64,000 nucleotides of DNA from Clostridia bacterium (GTDB lineage Bacteria; Bacillota; Clostridia; Oscillospirales; CAG-272). The notes beneath the pieces were generated by a model. It searched no databases. It had not been told where the DNA came from and was given only the letters and a program-made list of their open reading frames with translations. A program made the translations under genes and the position numbers. The DNA lies in contig JAFQHD010000108.1 of the NCBI GenBank assembly GCA_017398145.1, positions 4,456 through 68,455 on the forward strand, written 5' to 3'. Shown in pieces: positions 4,222 to 61,815 of this stretch; the stretch's first letter is position 1, and each line of letters opens with the position of its first letter.

Positions 4222-5943
4222 ATGAGTATTATCGATTTAAGGCTTAGTTTAGCGGCTTGTCTCAAGAAGGGAATTGACAGTATCAACCCCGATGCAGCAC
4301 TTACCGCCTCTGAAATTGCCGATATGTTCGAGTATCCCCCGGACGATAAGATGGGCGATCTGGCTCTGCCCTGCTTCAAGTTCGCAAAGACACTTCGCAA
4401 GGCTCCCCCTATGATAGCAAACGAGCTGTCCGCATCTCTCAAGGATGCAGAGGGCGTAGCCGAGGTACAGGTAGCAGGCGGCTATCTGAATATATTTATC
4501 GAGAGAGCTTCCTTTGCCCGTGACACCGTGGCAGAGGTAAACTCTAAGGGTGAAGCCTACGGCAGGCTGACTGTGGGTGAAGGCAAGACCGTAGTTCTTG
4601 ACTATTCTTCTCCCAATGTGGCAAAGCCCTTCCATATAGGACATTTAGGAACCACCGTTATCGGTCACTCCCTTAAGATGCTTCACGAGTTTGCAGGCTA
4701 TAAGTGCGTCGGTGTCAATCATTTAGGTGACTGGGGTACCCAGTTCGGTAAGCTTATCGTTGCATACCGCAAGTGGGGTAATAAAGAAGAGATCGAGGCA
4801 GGCGGCATTGATGCCCTCGTTGCCATCTACGTTAAGTTCCACGAGGAAGCAGAAAAGGACGAGACCCTTGAGGATCAGGCAAGAGCAGAGTTCACTGCTC
4901 TTGAGGCAGGGGATGAAGAAAATCTTAAGCTCTGGAAATGGTTTATCGAGATCTCTATCGAGGAATACAAGAAGACATATGCACAGCTCGGTATCGAGTT
5001 TGACAGCTATGCAGGCGAGAGCTTCTACTATGACAAGTGTGCTCCCGTTATCGAAAAGCTGAAGGATGCGGCTATTACAAAGGTAGACGACGGCGCTACC
5101 ATAGTTGATCTCTCCGAATACAATATGCCTCCCTGTCTTATACTTAAGCGTGACGGCTCCACCATCTACGCTACCCGTGATATTGCAGCGGCTCTCTACC
5201 GTAAGGAGACCTACGACTTTGACAAGTGTATATATGTAACAAGTGCAGGTCAAAGCCTCCACTTTGCACAGTGGTTCAAGGTGGTTGAGATGATGGGCTA
5301 TGACTGGGCAGACCGTCTTATCCATGTTCCCTCCGGTACAGTTAGCATCGACGATGCAAAGCTTGCTACCCGTACAGGTAAAGTTGTGCTGATAAAGGAT
5401 CTCTTCGCTCAGGCGACAGATAAGGTTCTTGGTATCATGAACGAAAAGAATCCCGATCTTGAGGGCAAGGAAGCTGTTGCCGAGGCGGTAGGCGTTGGTG
5501 CGATAGTATTCCACTATCTGTCCAACAACCGTATCAAGGATATCAACTTCAAGCTTGACGATGTTCTTAAGTTCGACGGCAACACAGGTCCTTACTGTCA
5601 GTACACCTACGCACGTTGTGCTTCTATCCTCAGCAAGGCAGGAAGCGTTGCGGACAACTGCGATTACACAGATATAACCGAAGAGGAATATCAGCTTGCA
5701 AAGACTCTTGCAAGGTTCCCCGAGGCGGTAGAATCTGCTCTTGAGTCAAGCGAGCCTATGATGATAACCCGTTACATCCTCGATGTTGCGACAGCATTCA
5801 ACCGTTTCTATCACGAGTGTCAGATACTGTCAGCCGAGGATGAAAAGATAAAAGAACGCCGTGTGGCGCTTACCAATGCAGCACATACAGTTTTAGGCTC
5901 AGCCTTTGGTCTTATCTGCATGAAGAAAACAGAAAAAATATAA
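4222..5943 (+). CDS. argS: Arginine--tRNA ligase
   Basis: ORF 4174..5943. HIGH-type motif (PFHIGHLG) and ArgS N-terminal and anticodon-binding regions. AGGAG at 4209-4213 favours the ATG at 4222. Confidence 0.92.
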   Translation: MSIIDLRLSLAACLKKGIDSINPDAALTASEIADMFEYPPDDKMGDLALPCFKFAKTLRKAPPMIANELSASLKDAEGVAEVQVAGGYLNIFIERASFARDTVAEVNSKGEAYGRLTVGEGKTVVLDYSSPNVAKPFHIGHLGTTVIGHSLKMLHEFAGYKCVGVNHLGDWGTQFGKLIVAYRKWGNKEEIEAGGIDALVAIYVKFHEEAEKDETLEDQARAEFTALEAGDEENLKLWKWFIEISIEEYKKTYAQLGIEFDSYAGESFYYDKCAPVIEKLKDAAITKVDDGATIVDLSEYNMPPCLILKRDGSTIYATRDIAAALYRKETYDFDKCIYVTSAGQSLHFAQWFKVVEMMGYDWADRLIHVPSGTVSIDDAKLATRTGKVVLIKDLFAQATDKVLGIMNEKNPDLEGKEAVAEAVGVGAIVFHYLSNNRIKDINFKLDDVLKFDGNTGPYCQYTYARCASILSKAGSVADNCDYTDITEEEYQLAKTLARFPEAVESALESSEPMMITRYILDVATAFNRFYHECQILSAEDEKIKERRVALTNAAHTVLGSAFGLICMKKTEKI

Positions 5944-6182: not shown

Positions 6183-6219
6183 ACTAAAATAAATAATAAT
6201 TTTAAGGAGAATATAAATC

Positions 6220-6942
6220 ATGTCCGGACATTCCAAATGGAGTAACATTAAGCACAAGAAAGAAAAGAGTGACGCTGCCAAGGCGAAAATATTTACCAAG
6301 GTAGGTAAGGAGATCGCAGTTGCGGTTAAGGCAGGCGGTCCCGACCCCGTTTCCAACTCCAAGCTTAAGGAGCTTATCGCAAAGGCTAAGTCCTTAAACG
6401 TTCCCAATGACAATATCGACCGTATCATCAAGAAGTCCAGCGGTGCTGATGCCGTTGATTACGAAGAGGTAGTATACGAGGGCTACGGTCCCAGCGGCGT
6501 TGCAGTTATCGTTGAGGCTACCACCGATAACCGTAACCGTACAGGCGGTAATGTAAGACACTTCTTTGATAAGTACGGCGGAAACCTCGGTCAGAGCGGC
6601 TGCGTGTCCTTTATGTTCGAGGATAAGGGCGTTATCATCGTTGAGAGAGAAAGCGGTGCAGACGAGGACAAGCTGATGGAGGATTCTCTTGAGGCAGGTG
6701 CAGAGGACTTCGTTGCTGACGAAGAGGTATTTGAGATCTACACCGTTCCCGCTGACCTTATGGCAGTTAAGGAAGAGCTTGAGGCTAAGGGCTACGTTAT
6801 CGCGTCTGCCGAGAAGGACAAGATCCCCTCTAACTACGTTACCCTCACCGACGAAGAGGATATCAAGAAGATGAACCTTCTTATCGAGCATCTCGAAGAG
6901 GACGACGATATCTCCGAGATCTACCACAACTGGGAAGAATAA
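6220..6942 (+). CDS. yebC: YebC/PmpR family DNA-binding transcriptional regulator
   Basis: N-terminus MSGHSKWSNIKHKK is diagnostic of the family. AAGGAG RBS upstream. Confidence 0.92.
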   Translation: MSGHSKWSNIKHKKEKSDAAKAKIFTKVGKEIAVAVKAGGPDPVSNSKLKELIAKAKSLNVPNDNIDRIIKKSSGADAVDYEEVVYEGYGPSGVAVIVEATTDNRNRTGGNVRHFFDKYGGNLGQSGCVSFMFEDKGVIIVERESGADEDKLMEDSLEAGAEDFVADEEVFEIYTVPADLMAVKEELEAKGYVIASAEKDKIPSNYVTLTDEEDIKKMNLLIEHLEEDDDISEIYHNWEE

Positions 6943-6968: not shown

Positions 6969-6972
6969 ATTA

Positions 6973-7057
6973 AATGCAGAATGCAAAATGCAAAATGCAG
7001 AATTGAGGAGATTTTTGTTGCATTAATGCAACAAAAATTTCATTACATTATGTAATG
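6973..7057 (+). repeat. Heptad array (AATGCAG/AATGCAA x4), then TTGAGGAG, a 11-bp hairpin and a second palindrome
   Basis: 7-nt tandem repeats at 6973-7002. Hairpin ATTTTTGTTGC-attaat-GCAACAAAAAT at 7011-7038. CATTACA-tta-TGTAATG at 7041-7057. Confidence 0.85.
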
Positions 7058-9361: not shown

Positions 9362-9400
9362 TAATGCGGAATTATGGATGAAAACAGTTGCCAACTGTTT

Positions 9401-9673
9401 TCATTTGTTCTTGATTATCTTATCCGGGAATACAGAGGCGTTTATCAGGTCGGCGGGGTCTATATCCAAAGCATCCGCGATATTGAAAAATATCTCAAGG
9501 GAAAAGCTGTTCGCCATACCGGGTGCTTCGATAACGCTTATAGTATTTCTGCTGGTACCTGCTTTCTCTGCCAACTCCTCCTGAGATAAGCCTCTGAACT
9601 TTCTTAAGGTGGCGATAGCTATGCCTATTTGAATAAATCTGTCCTTGTTCTTATGCGAAACTTCTGCTCTCAT
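9401..9673 (-). CDS. XRE-family helix-turn-helix transcriptional regulator (90 aa)
   Basis: HTH_3-like segment LRKFRGLSQEELAEKAGTSRNTISVIE. Confidence 0.8.
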   Translation of the reverse strand: MRAEVSHKNKDRFIQIGIAIATLRKFRGLSQEELAEKAGTSRNTISVIEAPGMANSFSLEIFFNIADALDIDPADLINASVFPDKIIKNK

Positions 9674-15798: not shown

Positions 15799-15848
15799 AA
15801 TTCTCAATTCTTAATTCTCAATTTAAGGTTACTTTTGCCCTGCAAAAG
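15799..15848 (+). repeat. Heptad array (AATTCTC AATTCTT AATTCTC AATTTAA) plus a hairpin, immediately upstream of the rsgA start
   Basis: 7-nt repeats at 15799-15826. Hairpin CTTTTGC-cct-GCAAAAG at 15832-15848. Confidence 0.8.
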
Positions 15849-19760: not shown

Positions 19761-19820
19761 AATTCTCAATTCTCAATTCGTAATTAAATGTGAAAAGTCG
19801 GTTCATTTGAACCGACTTTT
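19761..19820. repeat. Heptad array (AATTCTC x2, AATTCGT, AATTAAA) plus a bidirectional terminator hairpin
   Basis: 7-nt repeats at 19761-19788. Hairpin AAAAGTCGGTTCA-tt-TGAACCGACTTTT at 19793-19820. Confidence 0.85.
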
Positions 19821-33363: not shown

Positions 33364-34204
33364 AAAGAACCGTATAGAGGGTGGCACTCTCTATCTTGTA
33401 GCCACACCTATAGGTAACCTCTCCGACCTTTCGGACAGAGCGTATAAGGTGTTAAGCGAGGTTGATTTTATCGCCGCAGAGGATACAAGAAACACAGGCA
33501 AGCTCTTATCCGCCATAGGTATATCTAAGTCTATGGTATCCTACTACGAGCATAACAAAAAGTCTAGCGGCGAGCATATCTTAAAAAGACTTCTTAAGAG
33601 ACAGAGCTGTGCTCTTGTGACCGATGCGGGAACTCCCGCCATCAGCGACCCGGGCGAGGATATCGTACGTGACTGCATAGAGGCAGGTATAAAGGTGACA
33701 AGCGTTCCCGGAGCTGCGGCAGTTATAGTTGCTCTTACTCTTTCGGGCATGAACACCCGCCGCTTTGTCTTTGAGGGATTTTTGCCTGTCAAGGGAAAAG
33801 AACGGAAGGAAATGCTGACCGAATTATCCACCGAAAAGCGTACTCTCGTTCTCTACGAAGCACCTCATAAATTAAAGAATACCTTAGACGATCTCCTTGA
33901 ATATTTCGGCTCCGACCGTCGAATAGCTCTCTGCCGTGAGCTTACAAAGCTCAATGAAGAGGTAATGCGCTGTACTTTATCCGATGCCGTGGAGTATTAC
34001 GGTCAAAACGACCCCAGAGGCGAGTATGTTCTCGTCATAGAAGGAGCAAAAGGGGAAAGCATTGGTGCGTTTTGGCAGGATATGGCTGTAGATACTCATA
34101 TCGAATACTATATCTCTCAGGGATTGAAGAAGATGGATGCCATAAAGCAGGTTGCTAAAGACCGAGGGGTTGCGAAGAACGAGATATATAAGCAGACAAT
34201 ATAA
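33344..34204 (+). CDS. rsmI: 16S rRNA (cytidine1402-2'-O)-methyltransferase
   Basis: Tetrapyrrole-methylase fold with the characteristic N-terminus LYLVATPIGNLSD and AEDTR. Confidence 0.9.
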   Translation: MSSQSNEKNRIEGGTLYLVATPIGNLSDLSDRAYKVLSEVDFIAAEDTRNTGKLLSAIGISKSMVSYYEHNKKSSGEHILKRLLKRQSCALVTDAGTPAISDPGEDIVRDCIEAGIKVTSVPGAAAVIVALTLSGMNTRRFVFEGFLPVKGKERKEMLTELSTEKRTLVLYEAPHKLKNTLDDLLEYFGSDRRIALCRELTKLNEEVMRCTLSDAVEYYGQNDPRGEYVLVIEGAKGESIGAFWQDMAVDTHIEYYISQGLKKMDAIKQVAKDRGVAKNEIYKQTI

Positions 34205-34270
34205 GTGCAAAGTGCAAAATGCAAAGTGCAAAGTTTAGGAGGATTTCCGTACTTTGGTACGGAAATCTCC
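34205..34270 (+). repeat. Heptad array (GTGCAAA x3 / ATGCAAA), then TTTAGGAGG and a 13-15 bp hairpin
   Basis: 7-nt repeats at 34205-34232. Hairpin 34238-34270 (GGAGGATTTCCGTAC-tttg-GTACGGAAATCTCC). It fills the rsmI/dapA convergent gap. Confidence 0.85.
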
Positions 34271-54525: not shown

Positions 54526-55299
54526 ATGGAAATTATCGATACCCACGCTCATTACGATGACAGCAGGTTCGATGGTAATAGAGATGAGCTTATAGCCGAT
54601 GTTTTAAACATCGGCTATATCCGAAATATCATCAACTCATCCTATTCTATCGATTCCGCAAAGGTAGCAAGAGAGCTTTCAAGAAAATATCCGCAGTTCT
54701 ATTTTACCGCAGGCATACACCCCCACGACAGCGGAAAGGCAGGGGATAGGGATCGAGCACTTTTTGAGCTTGAGGGACTGCTGCGTGACCCTAAATGTGT
54801 TGCGCTCGGCGAGATAGGTCTTGACTATCATTACGATTTTTCAGACCGTGACACACAGAAAAAATGGTTTGAGTGGCAGATGCAGTTAGCTGACCGTCTG
54901 GGCGTTCCCGTTGCCATACACGACCGTGAGGCTCACGGCGACTGTATGGATATGGTAAGAAAATATCCCGAGGTCATAGGCGAGTTTCATTCCTTCTCAG
55001 GTTCGGCAGAGATGGCAAAGGAGCTGGTCAAGAGAGGGTGGTATATCTCCTTTTCCGGAGTAATAACCTTCAAGAACGCTTCAAAGATTCTTGAAGCGGT
55101 AAAGGCAGTACCCCTTGACCGCATAATGATAGAAACAGACGCTCCCTACCTTGCTCCCGTACCCAAGAGAGGTAAGGACAACAACTCCGCCTATATGAAG
55201 TACACAGCAGAGGCGGCAGCCAACGTGCTGGGTATGGACGTAGAGGAATTCTGTGCGGCAACCACCGAGAATGCCAAGAGACTTTTCGGCATTAAGTGA
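54526..55299 (+). CDS. tatD: TatD-family metal-dependent hydrolase
   Basis: DTHAH N-terminal motif, plus later HDRE and ETDAPY motifs. Confidence 0.9.
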   Translation: MEIIDTHAHYDDSRFDGNRDELIADVLNIGYIRNIINSSYSIDSAKVARELSRKYPQFYFTAGIHPHDSGKAGDRDRALFELEGLLRDPKCVALGEIGLDYHYDFSDRDTQKKWFEWQMQLADRLGVPVAIHDREAHGDCMDMVRKYPEVIGEFHSFSGSAEMAKELVKRGWYISFSGVITFKNASKILEAVKAVPLDRIMIETDAPYLAPVPKRGKDNNSAYMKYTAEAAANVLGMDVEEFCAATTENAKRLFGIK

Positions 55300-55331
55300 A
55301 TAGAGAATAGTGAATAGAGAATAGTGAATAA
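55297..55331 (+). repeat. Heptad array TGAATAG/AGAATAG x5 bridging the tatD stop and the next start
   Basis: TGAATAGAGAATAGTGAATAGAGAATAGTGAATAA. The tatD TGA is the first repeat unit. Confidence 0.9.
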
Positions 55332-55335
55332 CAAA

Positions 55336-55932
55336 ATGACAATAACTTACGAAGACGGTACAGGATTATATATCAATTCCACCAACCGCTGTACCAATAA
55401 TTGCGACTTTTGTGTCCGTACTACTGAGGACGGATATTACGGCAACCTGTGGCTGGAGCGTGAGCCAACTGTTGAAGAAATGATTGCAGATATAGACAAG
55501 AGAGATCTCGCCAAATACACCGAGGTAGTGTTCTGCGGCTACGGTGAGCCTACCATGAGACTTGACGATATTCTTGAGGTAGCAAAGCATATTAAAGAGG
55601 TATGTGACCTGCCTGTACGTATCAATACCAACGGTTTAGCCAACCTTTATTATGAGGACGATATCACTGAAAAATTTGAGGGCCTTATAGATGCAATTTC
55701 TGTCAGCCTTAATGCCGCAAACTCGGACGAATACGTCCGTGTCTGTCATCCCGTATTTGGGGATAAGGCATTCGAGGGAATACTTGACTTTACCGCCAAG
55801 GCTACAAAGTACGTACCCAAGGTCTATATGTCGGTGGTAGAGGGCTTTTTGAGCGAAGAGGACATCAACATCTGCCGTGCCCTTGCATCCTTTGTGGGTG
55901 CAGAGCTAAGAGTCCGCGAGTTTATAGGATGA
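55336..55932 (+). CDS. TatD-associated radical SAM protein
   Basis: CxxxCxxC (CTNNCDFC) near the N-terminus, about 200 aa, adjacent to tatD. The ATG at 55336 has no recognisable SD. Confidence 0.75.
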   Translation: MTITYEDGTGLYINSTNRCTNNCDFCVRTTEDGYYGNLWLEREPTVEEMIADIDKRDLAKYTEVVFCGYGEPTMRLDDILEVAKHIKEVCDLPVRINTNGLANLYYEDDITEKFEGLIDAISVSLNAANSDEYVRVCHPVFGDKAFEGILDFTAKATKYVPKVYMSVVEGFLSEEDINICRALASFVGAELRVREFIG

Positions 55933-56852: not shown

Positions 56853-57929
56853 TTATCTTTTAACTCTTGCGTTACCGCCCCAGATGGACCAGACCTGATC
56901 CTCATCCATGGGCTGTGCGTAGTCGGTTAAGAATGTGGTCGCCATAGCACCTGTAGCCCAACCGAACTGTATCCACTTCTCGGATTCCCAACCCTTGAGA
57001 ATGGAGTAGAGAAGACCGCCTACAAAGCCGTCACCGCCGCCGATACGGTCAAGTACGGTGATATCTCTGGGTTCAACCACGTGCCAATCGTCGCCTGCGA
57101 GGAGAATTGCTCCCCAGAGGTGATGATTTACGCTGATGACCTGACGAAGGGTGGTAGCAAATACCTTTGCGTTGGGGAACGCTTTTCTTACGTTCTCGAT
57201 CATACCCTTGAAACCGTCGATCTTAGCGGCAATATCCTTGCCGCCTGCCTCGGGACCCTGAATGCCTAAACAAAGCTGGAAGTCCTCCTCGTTACCGATA
57301 AGGATATCGGAAACGGAAGCGATCTCGGTGAAGATATCGTGGAGCTCCTGCTCTCTGCCTTCCCAGAAGGAAGCGCGGTGGTTTAAGTCAAAGGAAATAA
57401 GTGTGCCGTACTTCTTTGCCGCTCTTGCAAGCTCAAGACAGAACTGGCTTGTCTCGTGAGAAAGAGCGCCGATAAGACCGGAGAGATGGAGGATACCAAC
57501 ACCCTCCTCGCCGAAGATACGGTCAAGGTCAAAGTCGTTTATATTAAGTGTACGTCCTACCTCGCCTGCACGGTCGTTGCATACACGGGGACCACGTGCG
57601 CCGTAGCCGCTGTCAGCAATGTTGAACTGATGACGGTAACCCCAGGGGCCGCCCTGAGGAACCTCAGGACCTTCAAAATCCATGCCTCTGGAACGAAGAT
57701 CGCGCTTGATAAACTCTGCTATGGGGCTGTCCTTAACGAAGGTGGTAAGCACCTTTGTGGGTAAGCCCAGGTAAGCGGAGATAGATGCAACGTTGGTTTC
57801 CGCTGAGGTAGCCTGCATCATAAACATATTGCTTGATGCAACAGGCTGACCGTTAGGAGGGCAGATACGAACGCCCATACTGGTGGGAACGACAAGGCTG
57901 TATTTACAATTATCTTTAATCTTTAACAT
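56853..57929 (-). CDS. PfkB-family sugar(-acid) kinase (KdgK-like)
   Basis: Ribokinase-like fold with the C-terminal motif DRIGGGDGFVGGLLY. 358 aa. Confidence 0.8.
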   Translation of the reverse strand: MLKIKDNCKYSLVVPTSMGVRICPPNGQPVASSNMFMMQATSAETNVASISAYLGLPTKVLTTFVKDSPIAEFIKRDLRSRGMDFEGPEVPQGGPWGYRHQFNIADSGYGARGPRVCNDRAGEVGRTLNINDFDLDRIFGEEGVGILHLSGLIGALSHETSQFCLELARAAKKYGTLISFDLNHRASFWEGREQELHDIFTEIASVSDILIGNEEDFQLCLGIQGPEAGGKDIAAKIDGFKGMIENVRKAFPNAKVFATTLRQVISVNHHLWGAILLAGDDWHVVEPRDITVLDRIGGGDGFVGGLLYSILKGWESEKWIQFGWATGAMATTFLTDYAQPMDEDQVWSIWGGNARVKR

Positions 57930-57944
57930 TTTACTTTCTCCAAT

Positions 57945-58110
57945 CGTTATTCACTATTCGTTATTCTCTATTCACTATTCACTCTTAAAAAGCATCAGTG
58001 AATAATGAATAGTGAATAGTGAATAGATAATAGTGATGGTTGAAAACTGTTGCTTTAATGCAACAGTTTTCTTCCTTAATTTTGCATTTTTTATTTTGCA
58101 TTTTGCATTT
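57945..58110. repeat. Composite element B: inverted heptad arms, TGGTT, 12-bp hairpin, TTCCTTAAT, (TTTGCAT)n
   Basis: CTATT-type arm 57945-57983 and GAATAG-type arm 57997-58036. Hairpin GAAAACTGTTGC-tttaat-GCAACAGTTTTC at 58042-58071. TTTGCAT repeats at 58081-58110. Confidence 0.9.
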
Positions 58111-58120
58111 TTACAATGCT

Positions 58121-59572
58121 TTACGCATTGTAAATGGTTGCCGCAGTATCGCCGCCCATGCCGGTCCAGTTGGTGTGGAAGAACTCGCCTCTGGGGCAGT
58201 CAACTCTCTCGTAGGTGTGAGCACCGAAGTAGTCTCACTGAGCCTGGAGCAGGTTTGCGGGAAGTCTGTCACAGCGGTAGCCGTCATAGTAGGTGAGAGC
58301 TGTAGCCATAGCGGGAGCGGGAATACCGTTGGTAAGAGCTGCCGCACATACACGTCTCCAGCCTGCCTGAGCCTCGTCGATGATACCCTTGAAGTAGGGG
58401 TCAAGAAGGAGGTTGGTAAGCTCGGGATTAGCGTCAAATGCTTCCTTGATCTTACCGAGGAACACGCTTCTGATGATACAGCCGCCGCGCCACATAAGAG
58501 CTATGCCGCCGTAGTTGAGGTTCCAGCCGTAGGTCTTAGCTGCGGTTCTCATAAGAGCGTAGCCCTGAGCGTAGGAGATGATCTTGGATGCAAAGAGAGC
58601 GGACTTGATATCCTTGATAAATGCTTCCTTGTCACCCTCGAACTTAGGCTCGGGACCGGTTAAGATCTTGCTTGCCGCAACTCTCTCTTCTTTGATAGCA
58701 GACAGACATCTGGAGTAAACAGCCTCACCGATAAGAGTCAGCGGAACACCCTCGTCAAGAGATGCGATAGCAGTCCACTTACCTGTACCCTTCTGTCCTG
58801 CGGTGTCAAGGATTTTTTCTACTATGGGCTCACCGTCTTCATCTTTATAAGCTAAAATATCACGGGTGATCTCGATAAGGTAACTGTCAAGCTCCTCCTC
58901 GTTCCACTTAGCAAATACCTCGTGCATTTCGTCGCAGGACATACCGAGGTAATTCTTCATTATCTGATAAGCTTCGCAGATAAGCTCCATATCACCGTAC
59001 TCGATACCGTTGTGTACCATCTTAACGAAGTGACCTGCGCCGCCTTCGCCAACCCAGTCACAGCAAGGAGAGCCGTCCTCTACCTTTGCACAGATAGCCT
59101 GGAAGATAGGCTTAACAAAGGGCCATGCTGCGGGAGAGCCGCCGGGCATCATGCTGGGGCCGTTAAGTGCGCCCTCTTCACCGCCGGAAACACCGGTACC
59201 GATGTAGAGAAGACCCTTAGACTCAACGTACTGCGTTCTTCTGATAGTGTCGGGAAAGTGGGAGTTACCGCCGTCGATAATGATATCGCCTTCTTCAAGG
59301 AGGGGGATAAGGGTCTCGATCATAGCATCAACAGCAGAGCCCGCCTTGATCATCATCATAACCTTACGGGGCTTTTCGAGAGAAGCAACAAGCTCCTCAA
59401 GGCTGTATGTGCCGACTATATTTTTGCCGGCAGCACGACCTTCAACGAAGTTCTTTACCTTTTCTGTAGTTCTGTTGTATACGGATACGGTAAAGCCCTT
59501 GCTTTCCATATTCATAACAAGATTTTCGCCCATTACGGCGAGGCCGATAAGACCGATGTCTGACTTTTTCAT
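58121..59572 (-). pseudogene. gnd: 6-phosphogluconate dehydrogenase (decarboxylating) interrupted by one in-frame TGA (58235-58237)
   Basis: 445 codons (GLIGLAVMGENL ... LPANLLQAQ), then TGA, then 37 more in-frame codons ([37 protein letters not shown]) that continue the conserved Gnd C-terminus. Confidence 0.85.
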
Positions 59573-59600
59573 GATTGTCTCCTATATAATTAATTATTTT

Positions 59601-59749
59601 TTATTCGGTTATTAACTATTCACTATTCGTTATTCACTATTCACTAACTATCGGTTTTATATAACAAGTGAATAGTGAATAGAGAATAGATAATAGTGAA
59701 TAGTGATGGTTGAAAACCGCCAAAGCGGTTTTCTTCCTTAATTTTGCAT
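59601..59749. repeat. Composite element C, with the same architecture as element B
   Basis: Arms at 59601-59646 and 59668-59706. Conserved GTGATGGTTGAAAAC. Hairpin GAAAACCGC-caaa-GCGGTTTTC at 59712-59733 (stem differs from B, pairing kept). TTCCTTAATTTTGCAT at 59734-59749 overlaps the PHP stop codon. Confidence 0.9.
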
Positions 59750-60586
59750 TCCCTCTAATACCGAATAGGGAATTGTCATATTTCCTAATCCTTTTCCGAT
59801 GGAAATATGAGGCTTGAACGCACCGTGGAAATCGGTGCCGCCTGAAATTGCAAGACCAAGCTCTGCTGCCATTGCTTGATACTCCTCTTGCATCTCGGGA
59901 GTGTAGTCTGTGTAGTAGCCCTCAACACCATAAAGACCCTTCGCCTTTAATCGGGTGAGGAAAGCCTTGAGTTCATCGTGAGGCTTGCGGGTAAGATGCA
60001 GATGAGCTACAAACGCCTTACCCCCTGCCTGATTTATAAGCTCTACACATTCTTCATCTGTCAGAGCCTGTCTGCCAGAATAAGCGGGTCTGCCGTTGGC
60101 AAGATACTTGTCAAAGGCTTCTCTTACCGACTCGCAGTAGCCCTTCTTTACCATTATTTTTGCAAAGTGGGCGCGACAGAGCACATCTGTCTCGGCTATT
60201 TCCTCAACCTCGTGCATTGTAACGTCAAAACCAAGTCCACGGAGCTTTTCGCATATCTCTTCTTCTCGCTCGATACGCACCTGACGCACATATTTGAGCT
60301 TTTCGAGAAGAACCTCGTTATTAATGTCTATAAAATATCCGAGGATATGGGTTTCGGTATCAGATTCTGCCGAAAGCTCTATTGCAGGGATGACCTCAAT
60401 ACCGATACGCTCGCCTTCAGCCACCGCCTCGGCAACACCCGAAAGGCTGTCATGGTCGGAAAGTGCAATAGCGGAGATACCCTCCGCCTTTGCGTGGCAT
60501 ACCAGCTCTGTAGGAGTCATAGAGCCGTCCGAATATATCGAATGTGTGTGTAAGTCTATTATTTTTTCCATAATCATAAGGTCCAA
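59738..60586 (-). CDS. PHP-domain metal-dependent phosphoesterase
   Basis: DLHTHSxxSDG N-terminal motif and the later motifs SDHD and GGTDFHG. Confidence 0.85.
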   Translation of the reverse strand: MDLMIMEKIIDLHTHSIYSDGSMTPTELVCHAKAEGISAIALSDHDSLSGVAEAVAEGERIGIEVIPAIELSAESDTETHILGYFIDINNEVLLEKLKYVRQVRIEREEEICEKLRGLGFDVTMHEVEEIAETDVLCRAHFAKIMVKKGYCESVREAFDKYLANGRPAYSGRQALTDEECVELINQAGGKAFVAHLHLTRKPHDELKAFLTRLKAKGLYGVEGYYTDYTPEMQEEYQAMAAELGLAISGGTDFHGAFKPHISIGKGLGNMTIPYSVLEGMQN

Positions 60587-61815
60587 AGTCCGAGAGCGGG
60601 ATTGCTGATATAGAATATCTCCTCACCGTCAATAGTATGGAAGCCGTCTGTCAGCACCTTGGGGTCATACTTCTTTGTGATCTCGTCGTAGGGAATATAC
60701 TTAAAGTTGACTCCCTCAACCTCTTCCTTGCCTATCTCCTTTGTACAGTAGGTGATAGAGAAGCGGTCATCGCTTGAACCGTGGATAAGATGAGCCGCAA
60801 CAGAGAGGTTCTGCTTGAGATCGTCATGCTCTTTTACAAGCTCAAGAACCTTTTCTCTGCCGACATAGCCGTACTTACGGATAAGACGGTCGTTTTCATC
60901 GTCCTCACCGAACTTCTTTACAGCAGGCGCAAGGATGATAAGCTCGCCCTCATCGGCGATAGCCATACGGGTACGGTAAACCGCCTTGTTGCCAAGCCAT
61001 GTGCTCTTGAACTCACGGGGATCGAGGTAAACAACTACCTTCTTAAGAGGCTTGTCCATCTTGTTGAGGTTGGTGCCCTGGCTGTTCTTTACCGCCATCT
61101 CAAAGAGCTCACGCTTTCTGCCTATATACAGACCGTGGATGAAGGTATCGTCCCCCTTGTTTGTGGTAACGGTAAGAACGTACATAAGCGGAACGTCTTT
61201 CAAAAAGTTTTCCTCAGCGTAGTCAAACACCTTACGTACAGGGGAGAAATCCTTGCCCATAATACGCTCCATACCGTAGAAGGCACCCAGCATATGGGAA
61301 GAGTTTATCATAGAGGAGCCGCCGCAACCAACGAAGATGTTCTTGGAGTAGTTAGCCATACCCACTACCTCGTGGGGAACTACCTGACCTGCGGAAATGA
61401 TAAGGTCGTACTTTTTGTCCATAATACGGCGGTTGACCTCAACATCGATCTTATCGGTAACAAGACCCTCGGAAACCTCTGAAACAAATTCACCGGGAAC
61501 CTCGCCTAACTTTATAACATCGGTCTTCCAGTTGTGTACAAGTATCTTTTCGAAGGGAACGTCTGCACCGAAGAACGCCTTGCATTCAGCCTCGGTCATG
61601 GGTTCGTGAGTGCCGAGGGCAGGCATAATGTCAACCTCGCACTTGTCCTTTAAAAGATCGTAATAAATTTCGGTTATCTTGCCTGCGCCCGAATACATAC
61701 GGGTGTAGTCGGGAGGCAGAATTAGAACCTTTTTCAGATCCTTGCCCTCAAGGGATTTTGCAAGAGCCTCGCGGAGCTCGGTATCATTTAAGCCTTCTTT
61801 GCTTTCGTAAAACAT
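60574..61815 (-). CDS. LarA-like (lactate racemase domain, DUF2088) protein
   Basis: GTH motif, then PH-x9-K-x15-H (PHEVVGMANYSKNIFVGCGGSSMINSSH). As I recall it, this spacing matches LarA His174/Lys184/His200. Confidence 0.7.
   Translation of the reverse strand: MFYESKEGLNDTELREALAKSLEGKDLKKVLILPPDYTRMYSGAGKITEIYYDLLKDKCEVDIMPALGTHEPMTEAECKAFFGADVPFEKILVHNWKTDVIKLGEVPGEFVSEVSEGLVTDKIDVEVNRRIMDKKYDLIISAGQVVPHEVVGMANYSKNIFVGCGGSSMINSSHMLGAFYGMERIMGKDFSPVRKVFDYAEENFLKDVPLMYVLTVTTNKGDDTFIHGLYIGRKRELFEMAVKNSQGTNLNKMDKPLKKVVVYLDPREFKSTWLGNKAVYRTRMAIADEGELIILAPAVKKFGEDDENDRLIRKYGYVGREKVLELVKEHDDLKQNLSVAAHLIHGSSDDRFSITYCTKEIGKEEVEGVNFKYIPYDEITKKYDPKVLTDGFHTIDGEEIFYISNPALGLWTL

Follow-up and report, generated by a model that had tools for sequence, protein, structure and literature searches.

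A 64,000-nt stretch of contig JAFQHD010000108.1 from an uncultured member of the Clostridia (the whole stretch is called the window here; 68 kb were read from the host genome in total) carries, in the region 56.8–62 kb, the operon LarA_N-PHP-gnd-PfkB, whose four genes all lie on the minus strand. The gene gnd, for 6-phosphogluconate dehydrogenase, is accompanied by two non-coding inserts of about 150–190 bp, one on each side of it between cistrons, which are named element C (PHP side) and element B (kinase side). Element C occupies the PHP-gnd spacer of 165 nt and element B the gnd-kinase spacer of 191 nt, and a good sigma-70-like site (TTGACT-17-TAGAAT, with TG) is located at 61878-61850, upstream of the first gene. 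The genes and the parts of the two elements, including their short hairpin (H1) and long hairpin (H2), are listed in the order of transcription:

60574–61815, minus strand: LarA_N-like gene, first gene of the operon
59738–60586, minus strand: PHP gene, stop codon at 59738–59740
59733–59750, minus strand: 5′ motif AATGCAAAATTAAGGAAG of C, which includes the PHP stop codon
59708–59737, minus strand: H1 of C, GAAAACCGC-UUUG-GCGGUUUUC, with outer GG/CC
59667–59706, minus strand: H2 arm of C on the PHP side, CTATTC type on the operon strand
59647–59666, minus strand: apical loop of H2 in C, 20 nt, which is 7 nt longer than that of B
59602–59646, minus strand: H2 arm of C adjoining the gnd ribosome-binding site (RBS), GAATAG type on the operon strand
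58121–59572, minus strand: gnd, bracketed by C and B, stop codon at 58121–58123, in-frame TGA at 58235–58237
58110–58134, minus strand: 10-bp perfect palindrome TTTACAATGC-GTAAA-GCATTGTAAA, with the gnd stop codon in its loop
58071–58111, minus strand: 5′ motif AATGCAAAATTAAGGAAG of B, preceded by an (AAATGCA)n array
58038–58075, minus strand: H1 of B, with the top UGUUGC-AUUAAA-GCAACA, which matches the hairpin at 7013–7030 in 17/18 positions
57997–58036, minus strand: H2 arm of B on the gnd side, (CACTATT)n on the operon strand
57984–57996, minus strand: apical loop of H2 in B, 13 nt, with no relation to that of C
57944–57983, minus strand: H2 arm of B adjoining the kinase RBS, (GTGAATA/GAGAATA/ACGAATA)n on the operon strand, with UAG/UAA every 7 nt
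56853–57929, minus strand: PfkB-family kinase gene, last gene of the operon

Alignment of the operon strand showed that B and C are colinear, and the original observation of one architecture in the same orientation was thus confirmed. The 15-mer GTGATGGTTGAAAAC had exact copies at 58033 and 59703 only, and the 23-mer GTTTTCTTCCTTAATTTTGCATT was exact in B and C and nowhere else in the window. Exact blocks of 15, 19 and 23 nt are common to the two elements, and the longest exact blocks come to 19–30 nt. The common order on the operon strand is AATGCAAAATTAAGGAAG, H1, AACCATCA, (CACTATT)5, loop and (GTGAATA)5, and the H1-H2 junction of the composites reads GTTTTCAACCATCACTATT. The same odd variant order of heptads, GAATAACGAATAGTGAATA, is present in both B and C, which points to common descent and not to independent slippage. 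Element B was found to extend further than had been proposed, since its (AAATGCA)n array reaches 58111 and the palindrome at 58110–58134 lies over the gnd stop codon. An assembly artefact was ruled out, because B and C are identical in the window and in L001, an independent second assembly of the same species with 3 differences from the window over 17,148 nt. Strain polymorphism at the repeats, which had been considered earlier, was not seen between these two assemblies, where B and C did not vary and gnd was kept in both.

Folding of each element as sense RNA gave H1 and the long AT-rich hairpin H2, which is built from about 5 + 5 inverted TGAATAG heptads, with −60.7 kcal/mol and z = −10.4 for B and −50.5 kcal/mol and z = −7.1 for C. 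The inverted CTATTCA/TGAATAG arms (57948–57983/57997–58036 in B and 59610–59646/59667–59706 in C) are 83–89% complementary, in agreement with the earlier view that they pair as one long hairpin. The predicted H2 has 15–16 uninterrupted pairs with adjoining helices, 31–33 pairs in total; it is AU-rich, no U-tract comes after it, and H1 lies upstream of its UAG arm. The RBS-side arm of H2 has stop codons in all three frames, and the stops per frame number 7/5/4 for B and 8/5/4 for C. Read along this arm, the triplet series of B is UAG-UAG-UAA-UAG-UAA and that of C is UAG-UAG-UAA-UAG-UAG-UAA; the other arm is without AG motifs.

The H1 of B and C has a stem of 9–12 bp with A-tract and U-tract (UUUUC) shoulders. 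Two conserved sequences had been described around this hairpin, and they are indeed common to both elements, but they are not separate flanks: GGTTGAAAAC and GTTTTCTTCC are mutually complementary and form the lower stem of H1 (GG..GAAAAC/GUUUUC..CC) in B and C alike. The two elements differ apically, in the top of H1 and in the H2 loop (13 vs 20 nt), and the difference in the H1 top is a wholesale swap (CUGUUGC-loop-GCAACAG in B vs CCGC-loop-GCGG in C) with no point compensatory mutations. The idea that compensatory change in this hairpin reveals selection on structure was correct in that the hairpin is paired in both copies and in that double-sided changes occur in the wider H1 family, but as drawn from B and C it was too strong, because pairing would equally survive if a palindrome had templated the new top.

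The elements have also reshaped the gene ends at both junctions. The PHP stop codon sits within the common block AATGCAAAATTAAGG and the PHP tail reads GMQN*, which bears out the observation that the last codons of PHP are supplied by the element, and the last four residues of gnd are IYNA in the window vs NYVV, NYTV or QYSV in relatives. This locus shows that such arrays are able to remodel the last codons of genes.

A search with the gnd protein returned many relatives with 85–96% protein identity, and nine of their loci (L122–L127 and L145–L147, 146 kb in all) were compared with the window. The order LarA_N-PHP-gnd-PfkB was kept in 9/9 loci, where PHP and gnd overlapped or were separated by 2, 19 or 57 nt, and the gnd-PfkB spacer was 20–47 nt, with L122 alone having 127 nt of unrelated sequence. 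None of the nine loci had a copy of B or C, and both sites were empty. The nearest relative, L122, had only 80–85% nucleotide identity and is therefore a separate species, and since one has to go to other species, at this identity, for the nearest empty sites, no target-site duplication could be defined. L123 retains ...GAATAACGATTGGAGAAAG (...AATAAGAATAACGATTGGAGAAAG), the counterpart of the 3′ edge of B, which points to a native seed of two units that may have grown into the arm at the kinase RBS. Because they are absent from the nine relative loci, B and C do not represent a conserved attenuator for the gnd operon, and the earlier proposal of intercistronic attenuators or processing sites holds in so far as the elements are structured, intercistronic and constant in orientation.

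Some relatives have other structures in these spacers. The gnd-PfkB spacer of L122 (11453–11579) contains a 127-nt nested hairpin (z = −3.8) unrelated to B and C, and the PHP-gnd spacers of L123 (9944–10000), L145 (604–660) and L146 contain a small hairpin, GCCGTTA-loop-TAACGGC, in which only the loop varies. The PHP call of L145 (3–603) ends at 440 and homology runs on in another frame to a stop at 603, which is likely a frameshift or sequencing error, the contig being of low coverage. A separate observation concerns gnd itself, whose codon 446 is the in-frame TGA in the window and AGA (Arg) in L001, while the relatives all keep QAQRDYFGAH at this site. The product would be 38 C-terminal residues shorter, and the TGA is either a true loss-of-function allele or a sequencing error. 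The other two differences between the assemblies were synonymous in gnd (58502) and R30C in PHP (60499).

Tandem Repeats Finder and a custom scan detected 9–11 period-7 arrays in the window, at 8 loci, and first-order Markov simulations gave an expectation of about 0.05. Periods 5, 6, 8, 10 and 11 had zero arrays in the window, period 7 being the sole enriched period, and no period-7 array was found in the 146 kb of the nine relative loci. All the arrays of the window are intergenic and adjoin unrelated housekeeping genes, and the ones at 19761, 34202 and 55296 reach up to or into a stop codon. The arrays away from the operon are given below together with the modules at 3′ gene ends that contain a hairpin:

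6972–7004: (AAATGCA)n array
6972–7040, plus strand: 3′-end module after a YebC-family gene, consisting of (AAATGCA)4.6, AATTGAGGAG and a hairpin
9363–9405, plus strand: 3′-end module of AATGCGGAATTATGGATG and a hairpin, between a HAD-family gene and a convergent helix-turn-helix (HTH) gene
15799–15823 and 19761–19785: (AATTCTC)n arrays
34202–34234: (AAGTGCA)n array
34202–34270, plus strand: 3′-end module of (AAGTGCA)4.6 over the stop codon, AGGAGG and a hairpin shared with a convergent DHDPS-family gene
55296–55331, plus strand: single sense array (GAATAGN)5, source of the TatD stop codon, with 5 nt between its end and the radical-SAM ATG

The 18-nt motif AATGCRRAATTRWGGARG followed by a variable hairpin was present at five sites of the window (6994+, 9363+, 34225+, 58088− and 59750−), and five matches to the motif were reached by 0/100 shuffles. 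All five H1 modules follow closely on the end of a gene and keep one orientation with respect to it, on both DNA strands. The hairpins at 9363 and 34225 also abut the stop codon of the convergent gene and thus behave as shared, bidirectional 3′ ends, and the A-rich heptads give a U-rich tail on the opposite strand. In the 68 kb we found two full composites, which are adjacent, and three partial H1 modules.

The H1 family was also searched for elsewhere, with the pattern AAGGAAGAAAAC-N6-30-GTTTTCAACC. The scan of Joint Genome Institute (JGI) metagenomes gave 16 stretches, 15 of which were chance or coding matches and one a true relative (L132), and the pattern had no match in viral contigs; in the viral scans the 18-nt motif had 1 chance match (L144) and the CTATTC...GAATAG hairpin pattern 0. 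The six H1-type hairpins, five from the window and one from L132, have 11–20 bp and −15 to −21 kcal/mol. MAFFT misaligned the stems of these six modules, so pairs were compared via ViennaRNA instead. This comparison showed that the H1 of B and the copy at 6994 have the top six pairs in common and four double-sided changes in the lower stem, which means that covariation is real across the H1 family, as distinct from the whole-top swap between B and C. As for L132 itself, it is a higher-GC metagenomic contig (regions 3150–3300 and 6290–6400) with the H1-type hairpin AATTAAGGAAGAAAAC-GCCC-AAAA-GGGC-GTTTTCAACC, whose flanks are as in B and C. The contig also carries (ACTNTTC)n heptads between two GAAAAC...GTTTTC hairpins, and the GC-rich repeat TTTTTTCCGCGGGGGACCCACGGAAAAAAC as an inverted pair.

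The GAATAG heptad is widely distributed. Exact GAATAGN ×3 arrays occurred in at least 120 stretches of species-representative genomes, compared with a chance expectation of about 17 (our own estimate). Among the matches listed, the hosts came from many phyla and included cyanobacteria, Bacteroidota, Acidobacteria, Mesorhizobium, Methylotuvimicrobium and several Clostridia, and the present species was not in that list. The loci fetched from the listed matches contained 286 period-7 arrays vs 1–21 for other periods, and they included at least 15 (GAATAGN)n-centre-(NCTATTC)n foldbacks with a centre of 24–166 nt and a constant order. In B and C the order is reversed and the loop is short. Inverted repeats on either side of gnd, 89% complementary, are also formed by the CTATTC arm of C together with the GAATAG arm of B, and these do show the common order, but this was taken as incidental because the position of gnd is the same in all relatives. 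We also counted 138 GAATAGN arrays among the matches listed, 39 of which abut a same-strand open reading frame (ORF) stop and 8 the antisense equivalent, a statistic judged to be biased because a forward array by construction terminates any ORF.

Several of these loci were looked at individually. Mesorhizobium L110 has two foldbacks (4899–5010 and 6186–6300) with the homologous centre GGCAAGTCAATGGA, and three Methylotuvimicrobium species (L039 3657–3900, L048 3817–4100 and L111 1639–1900) have the conserved centre ..CTTGTCAAGCGCCGA.. between long arrays that vary in length and heptad. Foldbacks of this or a similar form were also present in L086, L083, L044 and L038. That one heptad and one foldback design recur across phyla suggests either a common mechanism or convergent selection for stop-N-stop heptads. 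Two metagenome-assembled genomes (MAGs) of Acutalibacteraceae had long heptad arrays directly beside putative RNA genes: (GTGAATA)6(GTGAAGA)8 beside a putative tRNA gene in L118 (3000–3110), and a GAATAG...CTATTC foldback after a putative tRNA- or tmRNA-like 3′ end and terminator in L044 (190–300).

Taken together, B and C are paralogous, species-specific modular intergenic repeats which were gained in both gnd spacers after divergence from the sequenced relatives. Each copy is made of module 1 (AATGCRRAATTRWGGARG, often expanded to (AAATGCA)n, then H1) and module 2 (the H2 heptad foldback), and both modules are part of a genome-wide burst of heptanucleotide arrays in this species. The kinship of the two copies, their potential to fold, their absence from relatives and their place in a family are shown here, and the effect on expression is inferred. 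For the whole account, in which the repeats uncouple the cistrons at the RNA level, we estimate a probability of about 55%. The inserts on the polycistronic LarA_N-PHP-gnd-PfkB mRNA would break the tight coupling seen in relatives, H1 acting as a weak, probably bidirectional terminator or 3′-exonuclease barrier and H2 providing the type of duplex, longer than 20 bp, that RNase III cleaves, and as an outcome the levels of the gnd and kinase segments would be shifted relative to the upstream genes. Judged from the anatomy and from precedent, such RNA-level uncoupling of cistrons is the most likely consequence for expression, and the strong structure, the intercistronic site and the constant orientation of the 3′ module at five sites fit an RNA-level effect. 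A promoter scan of the operon strand found no site inside or beside B and C or between H1 and the next start codon, with the sole exception of a weak 9/12 match in the 3′ end of gnd, so the downstream genes depend on read-through.

Several results weigh against this reading. The complete composites number two and lie side by side, so that dispersal as a unit is unsupported by the copy pattern; the JGI scan added a single H1 flanked as in B and C (L132), and the viral scans added none. A terminator consensus scan of either strand called neither H1 of B and C, which have 4 U and 3–4 G-C pairs, and H1 is therefore at best a weak terminator. Moreover, absence from all relatives suits a neutral or mildly harmful insertion equally well, and DNA palindromes can be processed in a way that keeps the stems and replaces the apical parts, with selection on RNA playing no part.

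The strong rival sees B and C as a by-product, neutral or selfish, in which heptads are made by slippage (7-nt units being favoured in many bacteria) and apical parts by template switching or repair of the palindrome centre, with little harm and no selected function. We regard this as possible, though less probable than the main reading. It would account for the restriction of the arrays to this species, with none in the 146 kb of relatives, for flanking genes that are unrelated housekeeping genes, for the apical replacements in H1 and H2 with stems kept, and for the richness of GAATAGN genomes in other heptads, as seen in the 286 period-7 arrays among the matches listed. Heptanucleotides are the commonest long simple-sequence repeats, and slippage has been proposed for them, according to Mrazek 2007 as cited in PMC4679880. 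However, it does not readily explain that 5/5 3′-end modules are oriented alike relative to the upstream gene on both strands, that arrays stop exactly at stop or start codons, and that the H1 family has double-sided stem changes; long near-perfect palindromes are also normally unstable unless tolerated or useful.

A role of the heptad arrays as RNA sites for a protein that reads a 7-nt register (HutP-like, cold-shock or S1-type), which would open H2 or recruit ribosomes and so control the translation of gnd and the kinase, seems quite unlikely. The UAG or UAA at each 7 nt on the RBS-side arms would suit it, as would the array at 55296–55331, which ends 5 nt before an ATG without Shine-Dalgarno sequence and is predicted to be unstructured. 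The known HutP target consists of two XAG-rich sites, with three motifs each, that flank a linker of 12–17 nt and a G-C terminator stem (PMC2425495). The resemblance to the HutP register that had been pointed out is real as regards the 7-nt spacing of UAG-N4, but the HutP architecture is not there: the one XAG-rich arm is interrupted by UAA, with UAG runs of at most 2 before UAA, and there is no second site, linker or G-C stem and no terminator between or after. In addition, 6/7 heptad positions are conserved, that is, the entire heptad and not AG alone, which goes beyond the needs of XAG recognition. No HutP-like antiterminator gene or cold-shock gene was found among the window proteins scanned, which were a partial coverage of the window.

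At the DNA level, the inverted heptads could be cooperative operator arrays, or B and C could be recombination sites that excise or amplify gnd, and we consider both very unlikely. Contiguous heptads form the operator arrays of the omega repressor of inc18 plasmids, and the 7-bp units here are contiguous too, both direct and inverted, with a constant GAATAG...centre...CTATTC order in the foldbacks listed from elsewhere; the outer arms of B and C are inverted repeats as well. But on the operon strand the arrays and their immediate surroundings showed no promoter-like site. Excision or amplification of gnd, which had been suggested from the flanking repeats, is formally possible, the two elements being direct repeats at a distance of 1.66 kb, but the exact blocks are only 19–30 nt, gnd is in the same place in all relatives, and both assemblies have kept it with identical elements. 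Lastly, that the LarA-like/PHP/gnd/kinase operon has in B and C its own conserved cis-acting attenuator or riboregulator is hardly credible and is contradicted by the comparative data, since despite the intercistronic position, the strong predicted structure and the unrelated small hairpins in the same spacers of some relatives (L122, L123), the elements are missing from 9/9 relative loci, have no Rfam match above noise, and share their modules with sites beside unrelated genes.

A broader view goes beyond the reading of B and C as species-specific repeats and is speculative and unlikely as it stands. GAATAG-type foldbacks might be a coherent, undescribed class of elements across Clostridia, Alphaproteobacteria (Mesorhizobium, with homologous centres), Methylococcales (with a conserved centre and arrays of variable length), Acidobacteria, Bacteroidota and cyanobacteria, in which a trans-acting partner, either a heptad-reading protein or a heptad-making enzyme, would explain bursts in single species, and B and C would be a case fused to a 3′-end hairpin module that now sets operon stoichiometry. 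For the operon itself, the locus offers a natural comparison, because the same four genes are tightly coupled in sister species and have heptad hairpins of about 170–190 nt at two junctions here.

Among known systems, an integron attC site or gene cassette was rejected, because there are no R″/R′ core sites (RYYYAAC...GTTRRRY) and gnd has the same operon position in relatives without the elements; CRISPR, retron and type III toxin-antitoxin repeats were likewise dismissed, given the architecture and the conserved synteny. Rfam at the gathering threshold gave no family for B and C, the only match in the window being a tRNA elsewhere, and in E-value mode it gave generic long-hairpin matches (microRNA precursors) of 17–34 bits vs thresholds of 40–230. 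The repeat strings GAATAGNGAATAG had no match in the literature searched.

H1 resembles intrinsic terminators and stabiliser hairpins in having a stem between an A-tract and a U-tract, and in its related copies at convergent ends (9363, 34225); unlike ordinary terminators it has a four-U tract, a G-C core of 3–4 pairs and a conserved 18-nt 5′ motif. With Correia, repetitive extragenic palindromic (REP) and bacterial interspersed mosaic (BIME) elements, B and C share a non-coding length of about 100–150 bp, inverted-repeat arms, co-transcription with neighbours and presence that varies between lineages. RNase III binds and cleaves Correia elements when they are part of an mRNA (PMC2649163), and B and C may be likened to such long RNA hairpins of Correia or REP type, which are cleavable by RNase III or stabilise upstream mRNA (PMC2649163). 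The predicted H2 reaches the duplex of about 20 bp or more in the transcript that an RNase III substrate has, and filled vs empty sites between lineages, as used to recognise miniature inverted-repeat transposable elements (MITEs) and REPs, are seen here, the sites being empty in all relatives. In contrast to Correia and REP elements, the arms are tandem heptads and not a unique terminal inverted repeat, and the two full copies are adjacent; no integration host factor (IHF) site, transposase or target-site duplication was identified for B and C, and the window proteins scanned included no transposase of REP-associated (RAYT) or insertion sequence (IS) type.

The closest likeness is to the bacterial heptanucleotide arrays, namely the TAACTGA repeats, the long simple-sequence repeats (LSSR) and the cyanobacterial short tandemly repeated repetitive sequences (STRR), the last being heptamer tandem repeats. 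These arrays have been known for decades and are still unexplained, and to our knowledge no function has been experimentally established for any of the three classes. TAACTGA repeats are intergenic heptamer repeats of Beggiatoaceae, Cyanobacteria and Bacteroidetes (MacGregor 2015, PMC4679880); they end just upstream of start codons without an RBS, overlap upstream stops, have stops in all frames when forward and are phylogenetically sporadic, and the BOGUAY genome has one inverted set only (PMC4679880). The arrays described here agree with the three classes in their 7-nt units, short tandem arrangement and almost exclusively intergenic location abutting stops and starts without Shine-Dalgarno sequence, in their sporadic distribution, which differs between close species, and in flanking genes without a functional theme. 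The radical-SAM leader (55296–55340), which has no Shine-Dalgarno sequence, no C and a predicted folding energy of 0 (unstructured), resembles TAACTGA-type leaders without ribosome-binding sites, and the forward stop-N-stop design with stops in three frames is also the same (TGA-A-TAG here, TAA-C-TGA there). Unlike the TAACTGA system, the heptads are GAATAGN, AAATGCA and AATTCTC, the host is a member of the Clostridia, and the arrays of B and C pair as inverted arms in a foldback of 33–36 bp and are fused to a hairpin module. The arrays found here have exact 7-nt units in at least 3 copies, an excess of this period, intergenic abutment to stops and starts, and a sporadic distribution, as do heptanucleotide arrays elsewhere.

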